Assembly (NCBI GenBank): GCA_044227505.1
Contig: JBGAWP010000007.1
Coordinates: 11,621-75,620 of the forward strand
Direction: 5' to 3'
Length of the DNA stretch: 64,000 nt
Source of the DNA: Chitinophagales bacterium
Lineage (GTDB): Bacteria; Bacteroidota; Bacteroidia; Chitinophagales; BACL12
Shown: in pieces, positions 4,093-55,742 of the stretch
Layout: each line of letters starts with the position of its first letter
Position numbering within the stretch: position 1 is the stretch's first letter
The notes under the pieces: model-generated
What the model saw: only the letters and a program-made list of their open reading frames with translations
Databases searched by the model: none
Told to the model about the DNA's origin: nothing
Made by a program: the position numbers and the translations under genes

Positions 4093-5445
4093 ATGACGAA
4101 ACGCATTGTCATATTAGGTTCAGGCGAAAGCGGCACAGGTGCGGCGATACTTGCAAAACGCAAGGGATTCGACGTGTTCGTGAGTGACAAGGGTACGATT
4201 AAAACTATTTATAAGGATAAATTATTATCAGAAAATATTGAATTTGAAGAGGGAACACACTCGTACGAAAAAATATTTTCCGCTGATGAAATAATTAAAA
4301 GTCCGGGTATACAGGAGAAATACGAAGTGATGAAAAAAGTGCGCGAACACAATATTCCTGTTGTAGGTGAAATTGAATTTGCGTGGAGATATTGTTCCGG
4401 AAAAGTAATTGCAATAACCGGTAGTAATGGCAAATCAACATGCACGGCACTTACCTATCATTTATTGCAAAAAGCAGGAATGAATGTCGCCATGGGTGGA
4501 AATATCGGAAAAAGTTTTGCAGAACTCATTGCAAACGGCGATCATGAATATTATGTATTGGAGATCAGCAATTTTCAATTGGATGATGCTGTAACTTTTA
4601 AACCATTTATATCCGTTCTTTTAAATATAACACCTGATCATCTCGATAGTTATAATTATCAATTTGAAAATTATATCGCATCCAAATTTCGCATCATCAT
4701 GAATCAGGGTCACGGCGATTATTTTATTTATAACGCAGATGATCCTGTTATAGAACAAGAATTATTAAAACCAAATTATCATAAAACGATCACATCGCTA
4801 TCCGCATTTTCTTTTACCCTGAATGACCGTTCGGGTGAAGGAGGGTGGATTTCCGGTGACACTCTCAATATTCAACTCAACCAAAACAAATTCAACATGA
4901 CCATCAACGAATTAGCGCTACAAGGAAAACACAACCAATACAACTCTATGGCTGCTGCCATTACAGGGAAGGCTTTGGACATTAAGAACGAAACAATTCG
5001 CGAAAGTCTGATGGATTTTCAAGGATTGGAACATCGCCTCGAATTTGTTGCAAAAGTGCACGGCATTTCTTTTATCAACGACTCCAAAGCTACAAATGTG
5101 AACAGCACCTGGTTCGCACTGGAAAGTCAGAACAATCCTGTTATCTGGATCGTAGGTGGAATTGATAAAGGAAATGATTATTCTTTAATTACTGATCTGG
5201 TAAGAAAAAAAGTAAAGGCAATTGTTTGTCTCGGTGCCGATAACACAAAAATTCACGAAGCTTTCGGTAAACTGGTTGATATTTTAGTGAATACAGAAAG
5301 TATGAAAGATTGTGTGGAAATGGCATATCGTCTCGGAAATAATGGCGATGTGGTTTTATTATCTCCCGCATGTGCATCATTCGACCTGTTCGAAAATTTT
5401 GAAGACAGAGGTCGTCAATTTAAAGCAAGAGTGAAAGAATTATAA
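4093..5445 (+). CDS. murD: UDP-N-acetylmuramoylalanine--D-glutamate ligase
   Basis: Starts directly after the mraY stop. N-terminal GSGESGTG loop and ITGSNGKST P-loop. Confidence 0.95.
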   Translation: MTKRIVILGSGESGTGAAILAKRKGFDVFVSDKGTIKTIYKDKLLSENIEFEEGTHSYEKIFSADEIIKSPGIQEKYEVMKKVREHNIPVVGEIEFAWRYCSGKVIAITGSNGKSTCTALTYHLLQKAGMNVAMGGNIGKSFAELIANGDHEYYVLEISNFQLDDAVTFKPFISVLLNITPDHLDSYNYQFENYIASKFRIIMNQGHGDYFIYNADDPVIEQELLKPNYHKTITSLSAFSFTLNDRSGEGGWISGDTLNIQLNQNKFNMTINELALQGKHNQYNSMAAAITGKALDIKNETIRESLMDFQGLEHRLEFVAKVHGISFINDSKATNVNSTWFALESQNNPVIWIVGGIDKGNDYSLITDLVRKKVKAIVCLGADNTKIHEAFGKLVDILVNTESMKDCVEMAYRLGNNGDVVLLSPACASFDLFENFEDRGRQFKARVKEL

Positions 5446-5468
5446 ATTAAAATTACAACAAGCAATTC

Positions 5469-6665: not shown

Positions 6666-6789
6666 AATGTATTATATGGAATAGCAAGTAATTGTGTTGT
6701 CCTATGTCCTACGTCATATGTCCTACGTCCGACGTCATATGTCCTACGTCCTCAAAAATCCTTCGTGGCAAAAAAACGAACAATTTAAA

Positions 6790-9255: not shown

Positions 9256-10040
9256 GCCTGAAAAAGAAAATATTTCGCGTTTTTGGTTTGTTGTTAATTC
9301 TTATCTGTGTTACCGGTTTGGTGATGTTGACCTCCTTTAATTCCAAAAAACAGGAAACAGTGGTGTGCGGAAAAGTAGATATTTTGATCGATCACGATAA
9401 GGATATCTATTTTTTAGATGAATCAGATATCAAATTGTTATTGATAAGATCTTTTGGAGATTCCGTTAAAGGGGATATGATCAAAAATATTGCTGTTGGC
9501 CGTATTGAAAAAGTGATTGAAAAAAATGATTTTGTGCAAGATGCGGAATGTTGGCTGGATGCAAATGGTGAATTACATATCAATATTGTACAGAAACAAC
9601 CACTTGCAAGAGTTATTAACAGCAGTGCTGTGAATTATTATATTACAGAAAAAGGAAATAAGATGCCTATCAGCGCTAAATTTACGAGTCGCGTTCCCGT
9701 AGTTACCGGAAACATTAAAGAAGGCACTTATAATTCCAACATGATAGAAACTCAGGTGCTCAAAAACGTACTCGAATTATCGCGTTTTATTCACGCAAAT
9801 ACTTTCTGGAATGCACAGATCGAACAGATCTTCGTCGCTGATAACGGCGAATTTATTTTAATTCCGAAATTGGGTGATCATAAAATTGAATTTGGTGGAA
9901 TTAACGATATGCAGGAAAAATTCAATAAACTCGAAATATTTTATAAAGAGGGATTGAATTATATGGGCTGGGACAAATATGAAACTATAAAGCTTGACTA
10001 TAAAGGTCAGGTTGTTTGTGATAAAAAAATGCAACTATGA
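9252..10040 (+). CDS. ftsQ: Cell division protein FtsQ (single TM plus POTRA-like domain)
   Basis: ATGA overlap with murC. N-terminal TM helix. Positioned between murC and ftsA. Confidence 0.8.
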   Translation: MSLKKKIFRVFGLLLILICVTGLVMLTSFNSKKQETVVCGKVDILIDHDKDIYFLDESDIKLLLIRSFGDSVKGDMIKNIAVGRIEKVIEKNDFVQDAECWLDANGELHINIVQKQPLARVINSSAVNYYITEKGNKMPISAKFTSRVPVVTGNIKEGTYNSNMIETQVLKNVLELSRFIHANTFWNAQIEQIFVADNGEFILIPKLGDHKIEFGGINDMQEKFNKLEIFYKEGLNYMGWDKYETIKLDYKGQVVCDKKMQL

Positions 10041-11446
10041 ACAACAGTAATCGAATTATTACAGGTCTCGATATAGGCACAACAAAAATTTGTGTTATTG
10101 TCGGACAAATGACAGATAACGGAAAGATCCAGATCCTGGGAATGGGAAAAGCGGATTCTTTTGGAGTAATGCGCGGTGTTGTTGCTAATATTGACAAAAC
10201 CGTAGAGGCAATTAAAATTGCTGTGCAGGAAGCACAAGAAAAAAGTGGCGTTGAAATTCACGATGTATATGTCGGAATTGCAGGTCAGCACATAAAAAGT
10301 TTGCAACATCGCGACATCTTCACACGCAACGATGCGGAAAATGAGATTTCCATGGATGATATCGATCAGATGGTGTTGAACATGCACAAACTTGTTCTGC
10401 CTCCCGGCGATCGTATCATTCACGTTTTACCACAGGAATTTATTGTAGATGGTGAACAGGGGATTAAAGACCCCATCGGCATGAGTGGAGTACGTCTAGA
10501 AGCGAATTTCCATATTATCACCGGACAAATTGCAGCTGCCAAAAATATTTTTAAATGCGTGGAAAAAGCAGGATTAAAAGTTATTGATCTCGTGCTTGAA
10601 CCATTGGCATCTTCAGAATCGGTTTTAAGTGAAGAAGAAAAAGAAGCAGGTGTTGCTTTAGTGGATATTGGTGGTGGAACAACAGATATCGCAATTTTTC
10701 AGGATGGAATTATAAGACATACTGCCGTTATTCCTTTGGGTGGAAATATTATCACTGAGGATATTAAGGAGGGTTGTATGATCATGAAGAACCAGGCGGA
10801 AATTTTAAAAATTAAATTTGGATCTGCTCTTGCAACAGAAACGGAGGATAACGAAATAATATCCATCACAGGATTGAAAGGACGTGAACCAAAAGAAATT
10901 AAAGTAGAAAATCTGGCAAGAATAATTCAGGCGAGAATGGAAGAAATTCTGGAACATGTATATTATGAAATTAAATTATCTGGCCATCATAAAAAATTAA
11001 TTGGCGGAATTGTGATCACAGGTGGTGGAGCACAATTAAAACATTTAGTACAACTGGCATCTTATATCACCGGAATGGATGCACGTGTCGGATATCCCAC
11101 TGAACATATTTCAAAATCTAAAGTGGAAGATATTCGTCACCCAATGTATGCCACTGCAGTTGGTTTAATACTAAAAGGTTGTGATGACAGAAATTTCAGA
11201 AATTTCGAACCGGCAACAGAAAATATTAATCCGAAGCAAGAAGTTAAGAATGTTGTTCCTGAAAATGTAATGAATAATGCAATGCAAAATAATTCGGTGG
11301 ATGTTGCAGTAGAAAATGAAATGCGTGAAGAAGAAAATGAAACCACCCAACAAGATCGAAAAAATGCAAAACCGGGTTGGCTGAAAAGTATGCTTTCGAA
11401 TACTAAGAAATGGTTCGAAGAAGATGACGTTTCGGACTTTAAATGA
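10037..11446 (+). CDS. ftsA: Cell division protein FtsA (actin-like ATPase)
   Basis: ATGA overlap with ftsQ. GLDIGTTKICV and DIGGGTTDIA phosphate-binding motifs. C-terminal amphipathic tail. Confidence 0.93.
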   Translation: MNNSNRIITGLDIGTTKICVIVGQMTDNGKIQILGMGKADSFGVMRGVVANIDKTVEAIKIAVQEAQEKSGVEIHDVYVGIAGQHIKSLQHRDIFTRNDAENEISMDDIDQMVLNMHKLVLPPGDRIIHVLPQEFIVDGEQGIKDPIGMSGVRLEANFHIITGQIAAAKNIFKCVEKAGLKVIDLVLEPLASSESVLSEEEKEAGVALVDIGGGTTDIAIFQDGIIRHTAVIPLGGNIITEDIKEGCMIMKNQAEILKIKFGSALATETEDNEIISITGLKGREPKEIKVENLARIIQARMEEILEHVYYEIKLSGHHKKLIGGIVITGGGAQLKHLVQLASYITGMDARVGYPTEHISKSKVEDIRHPMYATAVGLILKGCDDRNFRNFEPATENINPKQEVKNVVPENVMNNAMQNNSVDVAVENEMREEENETTQQDRKNAKPGWLKSMLSNTKKWFEEDDVSDFK

Positions 11447-11609
11447 TTTTGTAATTTGTTAATTGTCAATTTGATAATTGATAGACGCCAGGAAGATTGA
11501 ATTAACATTTATAAATTTTATATCACCATAAAGTAATAGAGAAAATGTAGAATTGAAATAAGAATATACAAAAAATCATATTGTTTTCCCTAACCCTTAA
11601 AAACAAAAT

Positions 11610-11966
11610 ATGAATGCTGAAGAGTTGAAGTTGCGAACTAAGCAGTTTGCAATTAATATCATAAAGTTCTTTGATTCTGTGAGTAGTGATTCCAAAAGTT
11701 TGAGAATAATTTCAAACCAATTGATCAGATCTGCTACTTCCATTGCTGCTAATTATAGAGCAGCCTGCAGGAGTAGATCTAAAGCTGAGTTTATTTCTAA
11801 AATAAAAATAGTAGAAGAAGAATCAGATGAAAGTCAATTTTGGATTGAACTACTTATTGAAAGTGGAATTGTGAGAAAAGAAAAAATAGAGTTCCTGTTA
11901 ATTGAAGCAACGCACTTAACAAAAATTTTTTCCGCCTCAGCCAAAACCGCTAAAACAAACAAATAA
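11610..11966 (+). CDS. Four-helix-bundle protein (23S rRNA intervening-sequence protein / Avd-like family)
   Basis: 118 aa. The segment SNQLIRSATSIAANYRAACRSRSKAEFISKIKIVEEESDESQFWIELL is typical of this family. Confidence 0.8.
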   Translation: MNAEELKLRTKQFAINIIKFFDSVSSDSKSLRIISNQLIRSATSIAANYRAACRSRSKAEFISKIKIVEEESDESQFWIELLIESGIVRKEKIEFLLIEATHLTKIFSASAKTAKTNK

Positions 11967-11996
11967 ATGGATAAATGTTAATGGGAAAATAAATTC

Positions 11997-12054
11997 TCCG
12001 GTAATAGAAGAAGTATCATCCGGAGCAATCAATTACCAAATTGACAATTACCAA
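11997..12054. repeat. Direct duplicate of 12116-12172; contains a third copy of the terminal repeat at 12029-12054
   Basis: ccggtaatagaagaagtatcatccggagcaatcaattaccaaattgacaattaccaa compared with ccggtcataataaaattatcatcggggaaatcaattaccaaattgacaattaacaa. Confidence 0.8.
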
Positions 12055-12191
12055 ATTGAAAATAAATTGATTGCCAAATTGAAAATATCAAAATCATCAA
12101 CGGGTAATAAAAGTCACCGGTCATAATAAAATTATCATCGGGGAAATCAATTACCAAATTGACAATTAACAAACTAATAAATTCTAAAAAA

Positions 12192-13979
12192 ATGTATTTC
12201 GACGTACCTAAGGAACAATCATCCATCATAAAAGTAATCGGTGTCGGCGGCGGCGGTTCCAATGCAGTTAACCACATGTTCATGCAGGGAATTAAGGATG
12301 TAAACTTTGTGATCTGTAATACCGACCATCAGGCTTTGGAAATGAGTCCTGTTCCAAATAAAATTCAATTAGGGCCAAGCCTTACAAAAGGCCGTGGAGC
12401 TGGTTCGCATCCGAGTGTTGGCCAACAGGCCACGATGGAAAGTTTGCAGGAAATAAAAGCTTTACTTGAAAAAAATACCGAGATGGTTTTTATCACCGCA
12501 GGAATGGGTGGTGGAACCGGAACCGGTGGGGCGCCTGTAATTGCAAAACTTGCAAAGGAAATGGGAATTCTTACCATTGGTATTGTTACAGTTCCTTTCG
12601 GATTTGAAGGTAAAAGAAGAAAATCGCAGGCACATGAAGGTCTGGAAACTTTAAAACATTTTGTTGATGCAATTTTAATTGTTTCCAACGATAAATTGCG
12701 CGATATGTTCGGCAATCTTGCATGGAATGATGCATTTGCAAAAGCAGATGATATTTTAACAACTGCAGCAAAAGGTATCGCAGAAATTATTACTGTTCCA
12801 GGTTATGTGAATGTCGATTTTGAAGATGTAAAAACAGTATTACGCGATAGTGGATTGGCTATTATGGGTTCCGGTAGTGCAGAAGGTGAGGAAAGAGCAA
12901 TTAATGCTGTTAAAGATGCATTGGAATCTCCGTTATTAAATGATAATGATATTCGCGGTGCAAGAAATATATTATTAAATATTTCTTCCGGAGTTAAACC
13001 GGTATTGATGGATGAAATTGCTGAGATCACCGATTTTGTTCAGGAAGCTGCGGGTAATGATTGTGATATTATCTGGGGAAATTGCACCGACGAAACACTT
13101 GGTGATAAATTAATGGTAACCGTTATCGCAACCGGATTCGAAACCATTGAAGAACGCAGTCGCAGGGTAAAAGAAAGCACTTATAAAATAACGCATATCG
13201 ACACCAATGCATTATTAAATAAAATGCTTGAACCCACAACACATGAAAAAGAGGAAGATGTTGAAGTTAAGGAAAAGGAAGAATTTTCTATTCATTTAAA
13301 AAGTGAGAATAAACCGGAAGAAAAAAAGATCAGGAAAGAAGAAGATTCTAATCCGCGTCAGTTCAGTTTCGATTTTGATATGTTTGGAGTTCCCGATCTT
13401 AAGGTAGAGGAAGAGGTAGAAGAACTTGTAAATGAACAGGAACCAATTATTACCAGAGAAGAACCGATCACAGAAATTGTTGCGGAAGAAGAGGAATTCA
13501 CAATAATTAATGAGGAGCAAAACACGAACGAGATTGTTGCTGAAATTAAAACGGAAGAAATAATTGCAGAAATTCCGGAGGTGAAAATAGAGACTCCCGA
13601 GATTAAGGAAGAACCTTTTTTCGAAATAAAAAAAGAAACTCGTGAACCATTTATAGAACCTATAATAAACAAAAAGGAAATAAAACCGATCGAGCAAAAA
13701 TCAGAACCAAAATCTTTTATTACAAATGAAGATAAAATGGGATTGGTAAATAATCAGAGCAACGACAGGATCAATCGTTTAAAAAGTATGAGCATGAAAT
13801 TGGGAAATAACAATTTAGAAGAATTAGAAAAAGTTCCCGCATACTTACGCCGCAACGTAGACCTGGAAGAAACTCCTGATGCACGCGAGATCAATGTTTC
13901 CAAATACAATATCGTAGACGGCGAAAATGGTCCGGAATTAAAAAAGAATAATTCTTTTTTGCATGATAATGTTGACTAA
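12192..13979 (+). CDS. ftsZ: Cell division GTPase FtsZ with a long acidic linker
   Basis: GVGGGGSNAV and GGGTGTGGAPV tubulin signatures. ATG at 12192 gives MYFDVPKEQSSIIKVIGVGGGG; the track ORF opens at 12159 inside the repeat. C-terminal VPAYLRR peptide. Confidence 0.95.
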   Translation: MYFDVPKEQSSIIKVIGVGGGGSNAVNHMFMQGIKDVNFVICNTDHQALEMSPVPNKIQLGPSLTKGRGAGSHPSVGQQATMESLQEIKALLEKNTEMVFITAGMGGGTGTGGAPVIAKLAKEMGILTIGIVTVPFGFEGKRRKSQAHEGLETLKHFVDAILIVSNDKLRDMFGNLAWNDAFAKADDILTTAAKGIAEIITVPGYVNVDFEDVKTVLRDSGLAIMGSGSAEGEERAINAVKDALESPLLNDNDIRGARNILLNISSGVKPVLMDEIAEITDFVQEAAGNDCDIIWGNCTDETLGDKLMVTVIATGFETIEERSRRVKESTYKITHIDTNALLNKMLEPTTHEKEEDVEVKEKEEFSIHLKSENKPEEKKIRKEEDSNPRQFSFDFDMFGVPDLKVEEEVEELVNEQEPIITREEPITEIVAEEEEFTIINEEQNTNEIVAEIKTEEIIAEIPEVKIETPEIKEEPFFEIKKETREPFIEPIINKKEIKPIEQKSEPKSFITNEDKMGLVNNQSNDRINRLKSMSMKLGNNNLEELEKVPAYLRRNVDLEETPDAREINVSKYNIVDGENGPELKKNNSFLHDNVD

Positions 13980-14056: not shown

Positions 14057-14096
14057 TCCCCACAGAGTTACGCGCAGCGAACTCTGTGGATTCGGA
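14057..14096. repeat. Hairpin repeat, copy 1 (ccacagagtt-N10-aactctgtgg)
   Basis: Near-identical 40-nt copy at 14211-14250. Perfect 10-bp stem. Confidence 0.85.
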
Positions 14097-14210: not shown

Positions 14211-14250
14211 TCCCCACAGAGTTACGTGCAGCGAACTCTGTGGATTCGAA
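14211..14250. repeat. Hairpin repeat, copy 2
   Basis: Differs from copy 1 by one loop base and its 3' flank. Confidence 0.85.
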
Positions 14251-16189: not shown

Positions 16190-16275
16190 ACAGGGCACAA
16201 GACTGGACCTAGGAAATAGGACATATGACATAGGAAATAGGATCTGACCTAGGACAAGGGAAAGGGATTTAGGAC
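16190..16275. repeat. AGGAC/TAGGA short-period degenerate repeat arm
   Basis: ggacctaggaaataggacatatgacataggaaataggatctgacctaggacaaggg..., the complement of the GTCCT arms found elsewhere. Confidence 0.8.
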
Positions 16276-19726: not shown

Positions 19727-19737
19727 GGAAAAGAGGG

Positions 19738-20129
19738 CGAGTGGTGAGTAGTGAGTGGTGAGAGGGGAGTGAGTAGGATGGGAAATGGTGAGTGGGATGT
19801 ATTGAGCAAGGATGATGGATTGATATCTTGTTGGAACTGATTGGTTCATTGTAAGATATTCCGGACTCACGGTTCACGAATAGGTGAGTGGTGAATGGTC
19901 AGTGGTGAGTAACTCCTGCTCAGCCGATGATGCGATTTCCTAGTGAAAATTAATCTTTAATGTTGCGTTAATTAAGCTCACTATTCACCATTCAGTACTC
20001 ACTATATGAGTAATGAGTTATGAGTAATGAGTTTGCTACTTGTCTGCTTGGTGGTTTGTTTTCCTATTGGTACCAATAGATACACATTAACAATCCACGG
20101 ACTCACAATTGACGATTCACGATTCACGG
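19738..20129. repeat. Block of short-period repeat arms (GTGAGTGG / CTCACY / GAGTAATGAG / CGATTCAC)
   Basis: Arms of opposite orientation at 19738-19911 and 19977-20004, with further arms at 20008-20031 and 20099-20129. Confidence 0.8.
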
Positions 20130-21132: not shown

Positions 21133-21196
21133 GTTGAAATTTGTGTTTTTGTAGAGTCGCAAAATTTTGCGACTCTACAAAAACACAAATTTCAAC
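21133..21196. repeat. 64-bp perfect palindrome
   Basis: gttgaaatttgtgtttttgtagagtcgcaaaa followed directly by its exact reverse complement. Confidence 0.95.
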
Positions 21197-26571: not shown

Positions 26572-26607
26572 TGTTTTATTTTCAGTTTGTTAATTTATTT
26601 TTTTTTT

Positions 26608-26805
26608 CGTGAATCGTGAGGCGTGAATCGTGAGTTTAGTTCTCGTTAGATTGATGATTTTATTCCAACAGGAAAATTAACTATCAACCAAAGTAAAGGT
26701 AAACTCATAACTCATTACTCATTCATCCCAAGTAAAAGTTCTCCTACGAAGCAAAATCATGATGCGGACATACTCACCACTCACCACTCACCATTCACCA
26801 TTCAC
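26608..26805. repeat. Spacer with CGTGAATCGTGAG arm (26608-26634) and CTCACCA/TTCACCA arm (26773-26805)
   Basis: Opposite-orientation arms in one convergent spacer. Confidence 0.75.
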
Positions 26806-39326: not shown

Positions 39327-39812
39327 ATGAAACAAACATCTAAAAAAATTATTCTTGCATCATCCATAATTATATTACTCGGAATAATGGTAAGTTTATT
39401 TTTTATAATCAGAGCTGAAAATAAAGATTTTTCGGAAAACGGTGTTTCTGTTAGCGCAACCATTTTAGAAAAAAGGGAAATGGATGATGATCACAGTTCA
39501 AAAAGAGTTAAAATGCGTTATGTTTTTCGAATTTCTTTTTTCACGGAACCTCAAACAGCAGAAAAACCTAAGGAAATAGAACCGGATTCATCTGAAAACA
39601 ATAAATCAGAAATCGATAAAAAACTCGATGATATTTTCGGTGATCCAAACCGTGAACGATTTGGCGATTATACCACAACTGAATTAAATGTAAATTCAGA
39701 TAAATACCTGCAATATAATGTTGGTGATAAAATCCGAATTACCTATTTAAAAGATTCTCCTGCTAAAGTGCGGATTGCTGAGGAGGAGAAAGGAGAAAGG
39801 AGTGAGGAGTAA
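39327..39812 (+). CDS. Membrane-anchored protein of unknown function (DUF3592-like)
   Basis: N-terminal TM helix. The last ~10 codons (EEEKGERSEE) are encoded by the degenerate start of the 7/8-mer array. Confidence 0.5.
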   Translation: MKQTSKKIILASSIIILLGIMVSLFFIIRAENKDFSENGVSVSATILEKREMDDDHSSKRVKMRYVFRISFFTEPQTAEKPKEIEPDSSENNKSEIDKKLDDIFGDPNRERFGDYTTTELNVNSDKYLQYNVGDKIRITYLKDSPAKVRIAEEEKGERSEE

Positions 39813-40012
39813 AGGAGTAAGGAGTAAAGGAGTAAGGAGTAAAGGAGTAAGGAGTAAAGGAGTAAGGAGTAAAGGAGTAAAGGAGTAAGGAGTAAAGGAG
39901 TAAGGAGTAAGGAGTAAGGAGTAAAGGAGTAAGGAGTAAAGGAGTAAAGGAGTAAGGAGTAAAGGAGTAAGGAGTAAGGAGTAAAGGAGTAAGGAGTAAA
40001 GGAGTAAGGAGT
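39806..40012. repeat. Tandem array of GGAGTAA / GGAGTAAA units (about 27 units)
   Basis: Continuous alternation of the 7-mer and 8-mer, with a degenerate lead-in from 39781. Confidence 0.95.
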
Positions 40013-49745: not shown

Positions 49746-49849
49746 ACATCAAACATTACTCTCCGATTCAAAATCCTCGTTTGGGCTAAAGCCCATTTTG
49801 GAGGGCGTGCTTTTTCCCCACCGGCTAAAGCCGGGGGTTATTGTTATTT

Positions 49850-50098
49850 GGATAAAGCCCTTTTATGTGGAGTGAGTTTTCCTACCGGCTGAAGTCGGGA
49901 GTTATTGTTATTTGGGTAATGCCCTTTATGTGATGTGAGTTTTCCTACCGGCTGAAGTCGGGGGTTATTGTTATTTGGATAAAGCCCTTTTATGTGGAGT
50001 GAGTTTTCCTATTGGCTGAAGTCGGGGGTTATTGTTATTTGGATAAAGCCCTTTTATGTGGAGTGAGTTTTCCTACCTGCTAAAGCCGGGGGTTATTA
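49850..50098. repeat. Tandem repeat, four copies of a 63/64-bp unit plus a degenerate copy at 49783-49849
   Basis: Unit: ggataaagcccttttatgtggagtgagttttcctaccggctgaagtcgggggttattgttattt. Copies begin at 49850, 49914, 49977 and 50041. Confidence 0.95.
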
Positions 50099-52391: not shown

Positions 52392-52749
52392 ACGACCTAA
52401 ATACTGAAAAATGTAGTGTTTTTAAGTATTTCAGCGGATTATTTATGCACGAAAAACTAACAATTTTGGGAAGGAGTAATAGGGAATTGGGAATGGTGAA
52501 TCAAGAATGGAGAATTGAGAATGAAGAATGGTAAATTTAGAGTGGATATTTGCTTTATGCGATAGGCGTTAATCCGTGAAGTGTGGGCTTAAACCAACGT
52601 AAAATCGTGCAATTATTATCAGCCGGGAAGTTATCGGGATGGTTTTGATGGATTCAAACTCATACCTCATTACTCTTAACTCATTTCGATAACGCAATGG
52701 ATACTCCCGAAAATTCAGATTCATGGAAGTATCGGAGGAAAATATCCAA

Positions 52750-54713: not shown

Positions 54714-55427
54714 ATGACAATGCAAACGAAAATACCGACTCCAGACTGCGAACATTGCAAGAGCAGAAATAAATCGCTCTTTCATTTTTGCCATTTAGAA
54801 GAAACGGATTATATAAATCAGACCAAAACCTGTGCGATGTATAAAAAAGGACAGACAATCTTTCACGAAAATGCAAATGCTTATGGATTATATTGCTTAA
54901 ATGAAGGTAAAGTTAAATTATACAAACAGGCGTCTGACGGCAAGGAACAAATTCTCAAAATTGTTACTCCAGGTGATTTTATCGGATATGGAGCGATGTT
55001 ATCTTCCACTACCTATGGTGTTAGTGCCGAAGTGATTGAAGATGCTGTTATTTGTTTTATTCCTAAGGAATCTGTTCTAAAAATATTCCGCGAGAATAAT
55101 AGATTCTCAGAAGGAATGGTACAATTACTAACCCAAATCATCGACCAAACCGTTGAAAAAATGGCGGACATTGCCTATAAACCTGTTAGAGGAAGAGTTG
55201 CAGAAGCATTATTATTACTCAGCGAATCGTATAAGGATGAAAATAATCCCGAGGGTATTGTAAGTATTACTCGCGAAGATCTCGCCTCTTATGTAGGAAC
55301 AGTAAAAGAAACCGCTATTCGTGTTCTCAAAGATTTTAAAGAAGACGGTCTCATTGAAACAAATAATCACGCGATCAAAATTCTTGATGCAGCGAGGTTG
55401 ACGAAGGTGTGTGAGTTATATGATTGA
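54714..55427 (+). CDS. Crp/Fnr-family transcriptional regulator with an N-terminal Cys cluster
   Basis: CEHCKSRNKSLFHFC, a cNMP-binding-like beta-roll, and the C-terminal HTH REDLASYVGTVKETAIRVLK. Confidence 0.88.
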   Translation: MTMQTKIPTPDCEHCKSRNKSLFHFCHLEETDYINQTKTCAMYKKGQTIFHENANAYGLYCLNEGKVKLYKQASDGKEQILKIVTPGDFIGYGAMLSSTTYGVSAEVIEDAVICFIPKESVLKIFRENNRFSEGMVQLLTQIIDQTVEKMADIAYKPVRGRVAEALLLLSESYKDENNPEGIVSITREDLASYVGTVKETAIRVLKDFKEDGLIETNNHAIKILDAARLTKVCELYD

Positions 55428-55460
55428 GGACAAAGGACATAAGACACAGGATAAAGGACA
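55428..55460. repeat. AGGAC-type arm (left arm of the 55428-55742 element)
   Basis: ggacaaaggacataagacacaggataaaggaca, immediately after the crp-family stop codon. Confidence 0.8.
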
Positions 55461-55503
55461 TTGTTTTGTTATTTATCCTGGACCGAAATTTATTATTTGA
55501 AAA

Positions 55504-55655
55504 TTTAGGTATCATTTGGAATTACACCTTTTGAAAAATCAGGGTAACATTGGGGAGATAGCTTCGTAATTACTGCGTAATTTCTCGCAATGACTTTCTC
55601 GTCAAAATGTTTAATTTAACATCAAAGCACCAATCAGAAATTAATTTAATGTTCT
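55504..55655. repeat. Dispersed intergenic element, copy B (inverted relative to copy A)
   Basis: See copy A at 16283-16438. Contains the CAATCAGAAATTAA module at 55631-55644. Confidence 0.85.
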
Positions 55656-55667
55656 ATAACGATATAG

Positions 55668-55742
55668 TCGTCCTATGTCCAATTTCCAATGTCCTATATC
55701 AAGTCCTGTCCTATGTCCTGTGTCCTATGTCCTATGTCCTCT
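55668..55742. repeat. GTCCT-type arm (right arm)
   Basis: gtcgtcctatgtccaatttccaatgtcctatatcaagtcctgtcctatgtcctgtgtcctatgtcctatgtcctc. Confidence 0.85.

Follow-up and report, generated by a model that had tools for sequence, protein, structure and literature searches.

We analyzed a window of 64,000 nucleotides (nt) from a Chitinophagales bacterium (contig JBGAWP010000007.1, positions 11,621 to 75,620), in which a gene for a small four-helix-bundle (FHB) protein of family PF05635 lies between the division genes ftsA and ftsZ and is enclosed by inverted repeats. The architecture of a stem plus an open reading frame (ORF) was found to belong to the gene family and not to the ftsA-ftsZ locus, and the window element very likely belongs to a class of PF05635 cassettes bounded by inverted arrays of short repeats. 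This class looks widespread and largely undescribed. ORF-bearing intervening sequences (IVS) in the 23S rRNA of Leptospira and Coxiella burnetii have reportedly been known since Ralph & McClelland 1993; what is new here is an IVS-type FHB cassette in an operon spacer, with private, hypervariable arms of short units. Our literature search found nothing that links inverted pairs of heptamer arrays, or occurrence in operon spacers, to FHB genes; the paper of Ralph & McClelland lay outside that search, and an earlier mention is possible.

The architecture was assessed across the gene family. We fetched 80 loci with homologues (47-61% identical) from metagenomes, of which 75 were usable; loci are cited below by L numbers. 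The 220 nt located 5' of the start codon were aligned with the reverse complement of ~250 nt located 3' of the conserved domain. An inverted repeat was detected at z > 3 relative to shuffled sequences in 69 of the 75 loci (92%), with a median z of 11.7, and the direct-orientation alignment scores of the same flanks were at background. As a control, 72 neighbouring genes of the same loci were treated in the same way; 6.9% exceeded z > 3 and the median z was 0.34. Of the two strongest outliers inspected among the controls, one (a ridA-like gene in L085) was itself flanked by ORF-less palindromic array elements. Every arm was a tandem array, with a period of 7 or 14 in 36 arms and of 8, 15 or 16 in 27. 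The layout was also present on seven of nine viral contigs and in RefSeq records of cultured strains, including plasmids, and an Rfam search of 20 other cassette loci gave no rRNA or tRNA context. The first-pass annotation, which was made from the sequence alone, had raised the question whether the 26-nt repeat of the window flanks other family members; this was not the case, and the repeat unit was private to each cassette. When each left arm was compared with 71 candidate right arms, its own right arm was the best partner in 30 cases and among the top three in 48. A GATTG core was shared by 64% of the upstream flanks (10% of controls) and CAATC by 53% of the downstream flanks, compared with 10-13% elsewhere; the core occurred across phyla of very different G+C content and was not universal.

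Five cassettes on one plasmid, pNFSY06 of Nostoc flagelliforme, illustrate how private the units are. The plasmid carries five genes annotated as 'four helix bundle protein', whose arms consist of ~4.5 copies each of CAGGGAG, AATTCAAA, GCAATTC, TAATTCG and GGAGATT, and in all five the two arrays are reverse complements of each other. The paralogues c3 and c4 share 73% protein identity. In their left arms one base differs in every unit (GCAATTC versus GTAATTC), and in their right arms the complementary base differs in every unit. Whole arrays have thus undergone a compensatory change, which argues that base pairing between the arms, and not one fixed recognised sequence, has been maintained. 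Small GIY-YIG genes are also annotated on pNFSY06, and L012 contains a free-standing 66-aa GIY-YIG gene (703-903) a few kb from a cassette between nuoH and nuoI.

Cassettes were found to split sucC|sucD, nuoF|nuoG, nuoH|nuoI, nuoI|nuoJ and nrdA|nrdB, as well as hsdR|hsdM, hsdR|hsdS, pyrR|pyrB, gnd|zwf, HlyD|ABC transporter and reverse transcriptase (RT)|Cas1; where both neighbours were co-directional with the cassette gene, they were evident operon partners. The upstream neighbour was co-oriented in 43 of 54 loci. Convergent junctions accounted for 22 of the 54 and were over-represented, and a divergent promoter region was occupied once. The median upstream gap was ~63 nt and was taken up by the array. 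Several cassette ORFs read on into the right array and ended overlapping the start codon of the next gene (L012, 5345-5392; L075, L082, L089 and L093), with tails such as QSKIRNPQ. The overlaps take the form ATGA or TAATG, an arrangement that looks like restored translational coupling with the gene downstream. The nrdA|nrdB cassette was compared in ten strains (L134-L143), in which the protein was 100% identical. Its left spacer measured 88-262 nt and its right spacer 62-534 nt, and this variation was purely one of unit copy number; that is, the cassette arrays are hypervariable in copy number. The arrays started at the nrdA stop codon and left at most 8 nt before the start of nrdB. Taken with the patchy occupancy of the ftsA-ftsZ spacer described below, the inverted-array layout and the splitting of operon partners indicate a cassette and not an ordinary operon gene, supporting the view that these elements behave as inserts.

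In the window, ftsA and ftsZ were reported by the first-pass annotation to be 745 nt apart in an otherwise compact division and cell wall (dcw) cluster, and our coordinates agree: ftsA ends at 11446, ftsZ starts with the ATG at 12192, and the remaining dcw junctions, ftsW-murG excepted, overlap or leave at most 25 nt. A mechanical ORF call had placed a TTG at 12159, upstream of the true ftsZ start; the beginning MYFDVPKEQ of FtsZ is common to all relatives. The left array begins directly 3' of the ftsA stop (11446 to 11447). The single 118-aa ORF that had been described in the gap as a four-helix-bundle gene was recognised as such by both family profiles, PF05635 (51.3 bits, cut-off 33.8) and TIGR02436 (75.6 bits, cut-off 24). 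All 22 invariant columns of a 30-sequence family alignment are present in the protein; the invariant residues include R9, K11, F13, N48-Y49-R50, E70-E71-x-D73-E74, W78 and E80. The family profile matches PDB 2RLD (five chains) with an E value of 1.5e-27, and homology to this solved structure suggests a four-helix-bundle fold. We found the identical protein on 23 contigs from metagenomes, and none of them departed from this layout. An Rfam search of the gap matched no family with E values of up to 5 allowed, and Rfam found no rRNA in the window.

The 26-mer TTGTTAATTGTCAATTTGATAATTGA is present at 11456-11481 (+, exact), 12147-12172 (-, one mismatch) and 12029-12054 (-, two mismatches). The 25/26 inverted repeat of the first-pass annotation was thus reproduced, and the third copy, given there as 23/26, was measured at 24/26; the direct duplication 11997-12054 / 12116-12172 that had also been noted was confirmed (identity at 47 of 58 aligned positions). 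A chance origin of the repeat was considered and rejected, as no match appeared in any of 100 shuffled sequences. There was no further copy in the 64 kb. The arms proved not to be single 26-mers: each is a short tandem array whose units measure 7-8 nt, with a double period of 15 nt (Tandem Repeats Finder periods 7/8/15). The right-hand units CAATTACCAAATTGA are the reverse complement of the upstream TTTGTTAA / TTGTCAA units, and a small CCGG-type hairpin precedes each right-hand array. The coordinates of the parts are listed below.

Parts of the ftsA-ftsZ cassette and its two host genes (positions in the window)
Feature	Position	Strand	Basis and content
ftsA, upstream host gene	10037-11446	+	ORF; Pfam SHS2_FTSA/FtsA on the identical gene of L001
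Left arm	11447-11482	+	Units TTTGTAA TTTGTTAA TTGTCAA TTTGATAA TTGA; core 26-mer 11456-11481
5' leader of cassette gene	11483-11609	+	Contains CCCTTAAAAAC at 11594-11604
Intact FHB gene, 118 aa	11610-11966	+	PF05635 / TIGR02436; sole sizeable ORF of the gap
Hairpin 1	11996-12025	+	CTCCGG, 18-nt loop, CCGGAG; -8.8 kcal/mol
Proximal right arm	12026-12100	+	CAATTACCAAATTGA-type units; inverted 26-mer copy 12029-12054 (24/26)
Hairpin 2	12115-12143	+	CACCGG, loop, CGGGG; perfect 5-bp stem in L011
Distal right arm	12144-12180	+	Inverted 26-mer copy 12147-12172 (25/26); ends 20 nt before the ftsZ ATG
ftsZ, downstream host gene	12192-13979	+	Tubulin, FtsZ_C

We compared the spacer among relatives using an FtsA scan with one genome per species, which yielded 40 loci, all from uncultured Chitinophagales or Saprospiraceae-like bacteria. 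A comparison of this kind had been proposed with the first-pass annotation; array-free short spacers do exist, and occupancy of the site is patchy, the cassette being sporadic among close relatives. L011, a locus of a sister species (FtsA 99% identical in protein and ~90% in DNA), carries the same cassette, which is 27 nt shorter; its distal arm is shorter by one 15-nt unit, and the conserved EEExDExxxWxE helix has been replaced in frame, which leaves the allele without the family-invariant EExDExxxWxE block. A second contig of the same species (L146) shows a different in-frame replacement in the same place. The replaced segments (L011 5845-5895 and L146 285-330, corresponding to about 11815-11885 of the window) cover the most conserved helix of the FHB protein. 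The L146 filler encodes GHAGTLDPLA, a TruB-like motif, and neither filler sequence occurs in the window. Both assemblies are of low coverage (1.7x for L011 and 3x for L146), and the replacements may be assembly artefacts.

At 97% FtsA identity, L015 retains the left arm and both hairpin-array modules around an unrelated 86-nt centre with no ORF; similarity of this centre to the leader, the ORF or the 3' end of the window cassette was not significant (p 0.18-0.78). L014 (97%) has one right module together with a REP-like palindrome, and L016 (90%) has a few CAATTTGG units and no gene. Most relatives with FtsA identities of 70-83% (for example, L017-L020, L022-L024, L026 and L027) have spacers of ~30-80 nt without arrays. 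Two more distant loci, L029 and L145, carry other FHB genes (52% and 68% identical, respectively) directly 5' of ftsZ with arrays of their own; that is, three FHB lineages (52-68% identical) occupy the ftsA-ftsZ spacer in different taxa. The leader motif CCCTTAAAAAC is common to the ftsZ-proximal cassettes of L011 and L029 and takes a variant form in L145, and L029 and L145 have CCCTWAAAAA in common. In L029 (CAYTFT010000372.1, 2851 nt), FtsA is 73% identical to that of the window and the N-terminal domain of FtsZ is 95% identical, a discordance that points to either recombination at the cassette or a chimeric contig. The stem of hairpin 1 is kept in L011, L014 and L015 with differing loops. 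Covariation of the hairpins over six modules amounted to one compensatory and one wobble change, which is weak support. The first-pass proposal of a self-contained insertion cassette is therefore retained in part: the stem-plus-ORF layout is found family-wide, but the arms persist without the ORF in L015, indicating that arms and ORF need not be gained or lost together.

The cassette was far less diverged than its surroundings. Between the window and L011, 41% of the four-fold degenerate sites of murC, ftsQ, ftsA and ftsZ differ (247/603), compared with 5.4% of the 3' spacer and 13% of the 5' spacer of the cassette (p ~1e-24 and ~1e-12, respectively, against the four-fold sites). The most conserved 240 nt of the region, 11888-12127, were called non-coding. 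The proximal right arm is the most conserved stretch, with 97-98% identity, and the high conservation stops short of ftsZ. The low divergence may reflect either strong constraint on the nucleic acid or exchange of cassettes between species after the split.

The arms were predicted to pair strongly at the RNA level, with energies of -31.5 kcal/mol for the left arm against the proximal right arm and -33.1 kcal/mol against the distal one; shuffled arms reached -9.6 kcal/mol on average and -21.6 kcal/mol at best. Folding of 11440-12200, as had been suggested earlier, gave a minimum free energy structure of -167 kcal/mol (z -6.3) that closes the whole cassette with the distal arm; the complementary ends of the insert thus form a predicted stem with the ORF in its loop. 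With the distal stem formed, 9 + 20 nt remain unpaired between the ftsA stop and the ftsZ start, which would be close to the ~30-nt spacers of insert-free relatives. TAnnTTTG is the consensus -7 motif of Bacteroidetes promoters. It occurs on neither strand of 11400-12260, compared with an average of one per kb in the window, and this absence fits read-through transcription from the dcw operon. Matches to sigma-70-type promoters were at chance level.

These results suggest the following course of events. The cassette very likely entered the ftsA-ftsZ spacer in an ancestor of this uncultured Chitinophagales lineage, and it very likely decayed later in some relatives through internal replacement of the ORF, loss of the ORF and shortening of the arrays. 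It probably has no promoter to itself and is read as part of the dcw operon. In the resulting transcript, the left array would pair with one of the two right arrays, looping out the gene and bringing the ftsA stop and the ftsZ start to ~30 nt, the presumed ancestral spacer length. By analogy with the ORF-bearing 23S rRNA IVS, the 26-35-bp duplex might then be cut by RNase III, and the insert might be removed from the host RNA or insulated within it. A stem of 26-35 bp seems long enough for RNase III. We put the probability of this account, looping-out of the RNA included, at about 0.6; cleavage by RNase III specifically is roughly an even call, if slightly less than that. In this organism, a foreign insert of 745 nt very probably has to be transcribed through and processed for ftsZ to be expressed.

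Several points weigh against this account. Co-transcription, stem formation and cleavage are all steps that we infer. The 64 kb showed no mobility enzyme and no second copy: the window holds a single 26-mer set and a single gene rather than multiple copies with the same termini. Nor was a convincing target-site duplication seen on inspecting the sequence beyond 11446 and 12182, where the A/T-rich flanks make short duplications unreadable. L015 has both arms without the ORF, and the arms may pre-date the ORF at this site. The over-representation of GATTG/CAATC could reflect recognition by a protein and not pairing. The nrdA|nrdB arrays share just a GGATT/AATCC core, differ in period and form no long perfect duplex. 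Finally, G·U-compatible mismatches in the arms numbered 65 on the coding strand and 69 on the other, and this lack of strand bias means that pairing of RNA is not separable from pairing of single-stranded DNA.

The last three of these points also speak for an explanation at the level of DNA, in which the arms serve as inverted arrays of binding sites for an FHB pentamer or a recombinase, or as portable homology for exchange of the centre, and RNA pairing is incidental. The oriented core is common across phyla, the nrdA|nrdB arrays, though only loosely complementary, are conserved, with hypervariable copy numbers, and L015 amounts to the arms of the window around a different centre. In addition, arms typically comprise about five units, and relatives of the FHB protein crystallise as pentamers (PMC4990558). 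Nevertheless, we consider this explanation unlikely. The five pNFSY06 units have no common motif, yet their arm pairs are complementary and one pair shows the compensatory change, and this is easier to reconcile with pairing than with one binding specificity. RNA naturally forms a duplex that closes a loop of 400-600 nt, but in double-stranded DNA the corresponding cruciform would be unfavourable, and the rRNA-borne relatives have been shown experimentally to be processed at an RNA stem.

It is quite improbable that no mobile cassette is involved and that ftsZ has a lineage-specific regulatory leader made of these repeats, in a heptamer-rich genome, with the FHB gene as an ordinary accessory gene. 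Such a leader would not be expected to follow the gene through unrelated operons, phyla, plasmids and viral contigs, as the layout does (~7% of control genes show it), nor would it be missing from most relatives at 70-83% FtsA identity, and three different FHB lineages occupy the same spacer of different taxa. The idea does accommodate the many intergenic heptamer arrays of the window, one of them in the ftsW-murG spacer, the gene-free arrays in the L015 and L016 spacers, and the position of the most conserved stretch, the 3' spacer, directly 5' of ftsZ. More far-fetched still is an orphan or remnant Avd of a diversity-generating retroelement (DGR), with the repeats as its remains. PF05635 is the Pfam family most often adjacent to DGR reverse transcriptases, and Avd-like proteins are assigned to it (PMC10053308); Avd is likewise a homologous small four-helix-bundle protein whose solved relatives are pentamers. 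The window gene differs in that it stands alone between ftsA and ftsZ: no reverse transcriptase (RVT_1) was detected among the ten other window ORFs scanned, no direct repeats of the template/variable type were present in the 64 kb, and the gene had no match in PADLOC or PHROG. Its repeats are inverted arrays of 7-8-nt units, which are not a DGR feature, and not a ~100-nt pair differing at adenines.

Among known systems, the 23S IVS of Coxiella burnetii comes closest to the looped-out cassette proposed here. It carries a homologous ORF in the loop of its stem and is excised by RNase III. Just 5' of the start codon there are three or four tandem GACAGAT heptamers, their number varying among strains; the 5' cleavage site is at the first heptamer repeat, and some strains have deletions in the ORF (PMC4990558). 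The window cassette resembles it in holding the same protein family in the loop of a long stem made by the two ends of the insert, in its tandem heptamers 5' of the start codon, in its sporadic distribution and deletion-prone ORF, and, as we infer, in being carried on the host transcript without one of its own. It differs in lying in the spacer of a protein-coding operon, between ftsA and ftsZ, and not in a 23S/16S rRNA helix such as helix 25 or 45 of 23S, and in offering a choice of two right arms, both accompanied by a small hairpin. Excision by RNase III has been demonstrated in the rRNA case, whereas for the window cassette it is a prediction. We conclude that the cassette, although it is not filed as an IVS in the absence of an rRNA insertion, would work like one.

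The arrays also recall the short tandemly repeated repetitive (STRR) sequences of heterocystous cyanobacteria and the TAACTGA repeats, which occur in Beggiatoaceae, Cyanobacteria and some Bacteroidetes and whose function is unknown (PMC4679880); intergenic heptamer repeats are also on record for Geobacter. These consist of 7-nt units in 2 to >40 copies, are intergenic and often just 5' of start codons, occur in the same phyla and vary in copy number among strains, and the arrays of the window conform to this description. They have been described as direct arrays without a partner, whereas here an inverted pair of a private unit encloses one gene family. Miniature inverted-repeat transposable elements (MITE) and repetitive extragenic palindromes with their mosaic elements (REP/BIME) are comparable in being small, bounded by inverted repeats, tolerated in intergenic or 3' regions and patchy among relatives. 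The cassettes differ from them in carrying a conserved protein-coding gene and in having copy-specific tandem arrays as arms, not a fixed terminal repeat recognised by a transposase. No target-site duplication is evident at the window cassette, whose A/T-rich flanks would hide a short one.

Among the small protein families of Bacteroidota and Cyanobacteria that are still uncharacterised, PF05635 is one of the commonest, and its members have so far been read as functional partners of the host operon, for example as possible partners in cas loci (PMC3936711). Our results suggest that the genes in cas loci are interlopers, as elsewhere, and the cassette view reframes the annotation of PF05635 genes. 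The rRNA IVS now look like a small subset of a general inverted-array cassette that intrudes into many essential operons. The cassettes are a possible source of the unexplained heptamer repeats in these phyla, and they offer an experimental way into the question of how inserts can sit harmlessly between ftsA and ftsZ, nrdA and nrdB, or sucC and sucD. A wider reading, which we consider doubtful and offer as speculation, would make PF05635 cassettes a large class of selfish elements in transcribed spacers (operon junctions, 3' ends and rRNA helices) of Bacteroidota, Cyanobacteria and further phyla. Their tolerance by the host would rest on the self-complementary arrays, which would remove them from the RNA or insulate them within it. 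Their arms would be both built and homogenised by an active process of repeat addition or copying involving the Avd-like pentamer, with, for instance, reverse transcription of the excised stem-loop RNA by an enzyme of the host, and STRR-type arrays and ORF-less inverted pairs would be footprints of such cassettes.

Other repeats were observed in the window, which is rich in STRR-like intergenic heptamer arrays. Examples are GTCCTAC x7.7 in the ftsW-murG spacer (6699-6752), GGACATA x5.4 (16205-16242), AGGAGTA x31 (39784-40012), GAATGGA x5.9 (52484-52541) and GTCCTAT x10.7 (55670-55740). The last of these forms an inverted pair with an AGGACAW array at 55427-55460; the two heptamer arrays are ~210 nt apart and enclose no ORF and no detectable FHB remnant, and the pair (55427-55740) is an ORF-less version of the cassette architecture. 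The first-pass annotation had thought of the cassette as a possible ORF-bearing relative of the ORF-less repeats in the window, and this kinship was not supported, as the units differ. A six-frame profile search of the gene-free spacers of the relatives and of the whole window gave no FHB remnants, and nothing identifies the ORF-less arrays as decayed cassettes. A composite element of [GGTGAGT]n, [ATGAGTA]n and [TCACGAT]n occurs in two opposite copies, at 19732-20128 (+) and 26607-26805 (-). The REP-like 30-nt palindrome CCACAGAGTTACGYGCAGCGAACTCTGTGG is present twice 3' of ftsZ (14060-14089 and 14214-14243), and the palindrome in the ftsA-ftsZ spacer of L014 (about 5410-5450) is related to it. 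A 64-nt tandem repeat of ~4.5 copies at 49813-50097 has a CCGGCTGAAGTCGGGGG-type hairpin in each copy, and an intergenic perfect palindrome of 64 nt, composed of two 32-nt arms with no spacer, is located at 21133-21196.

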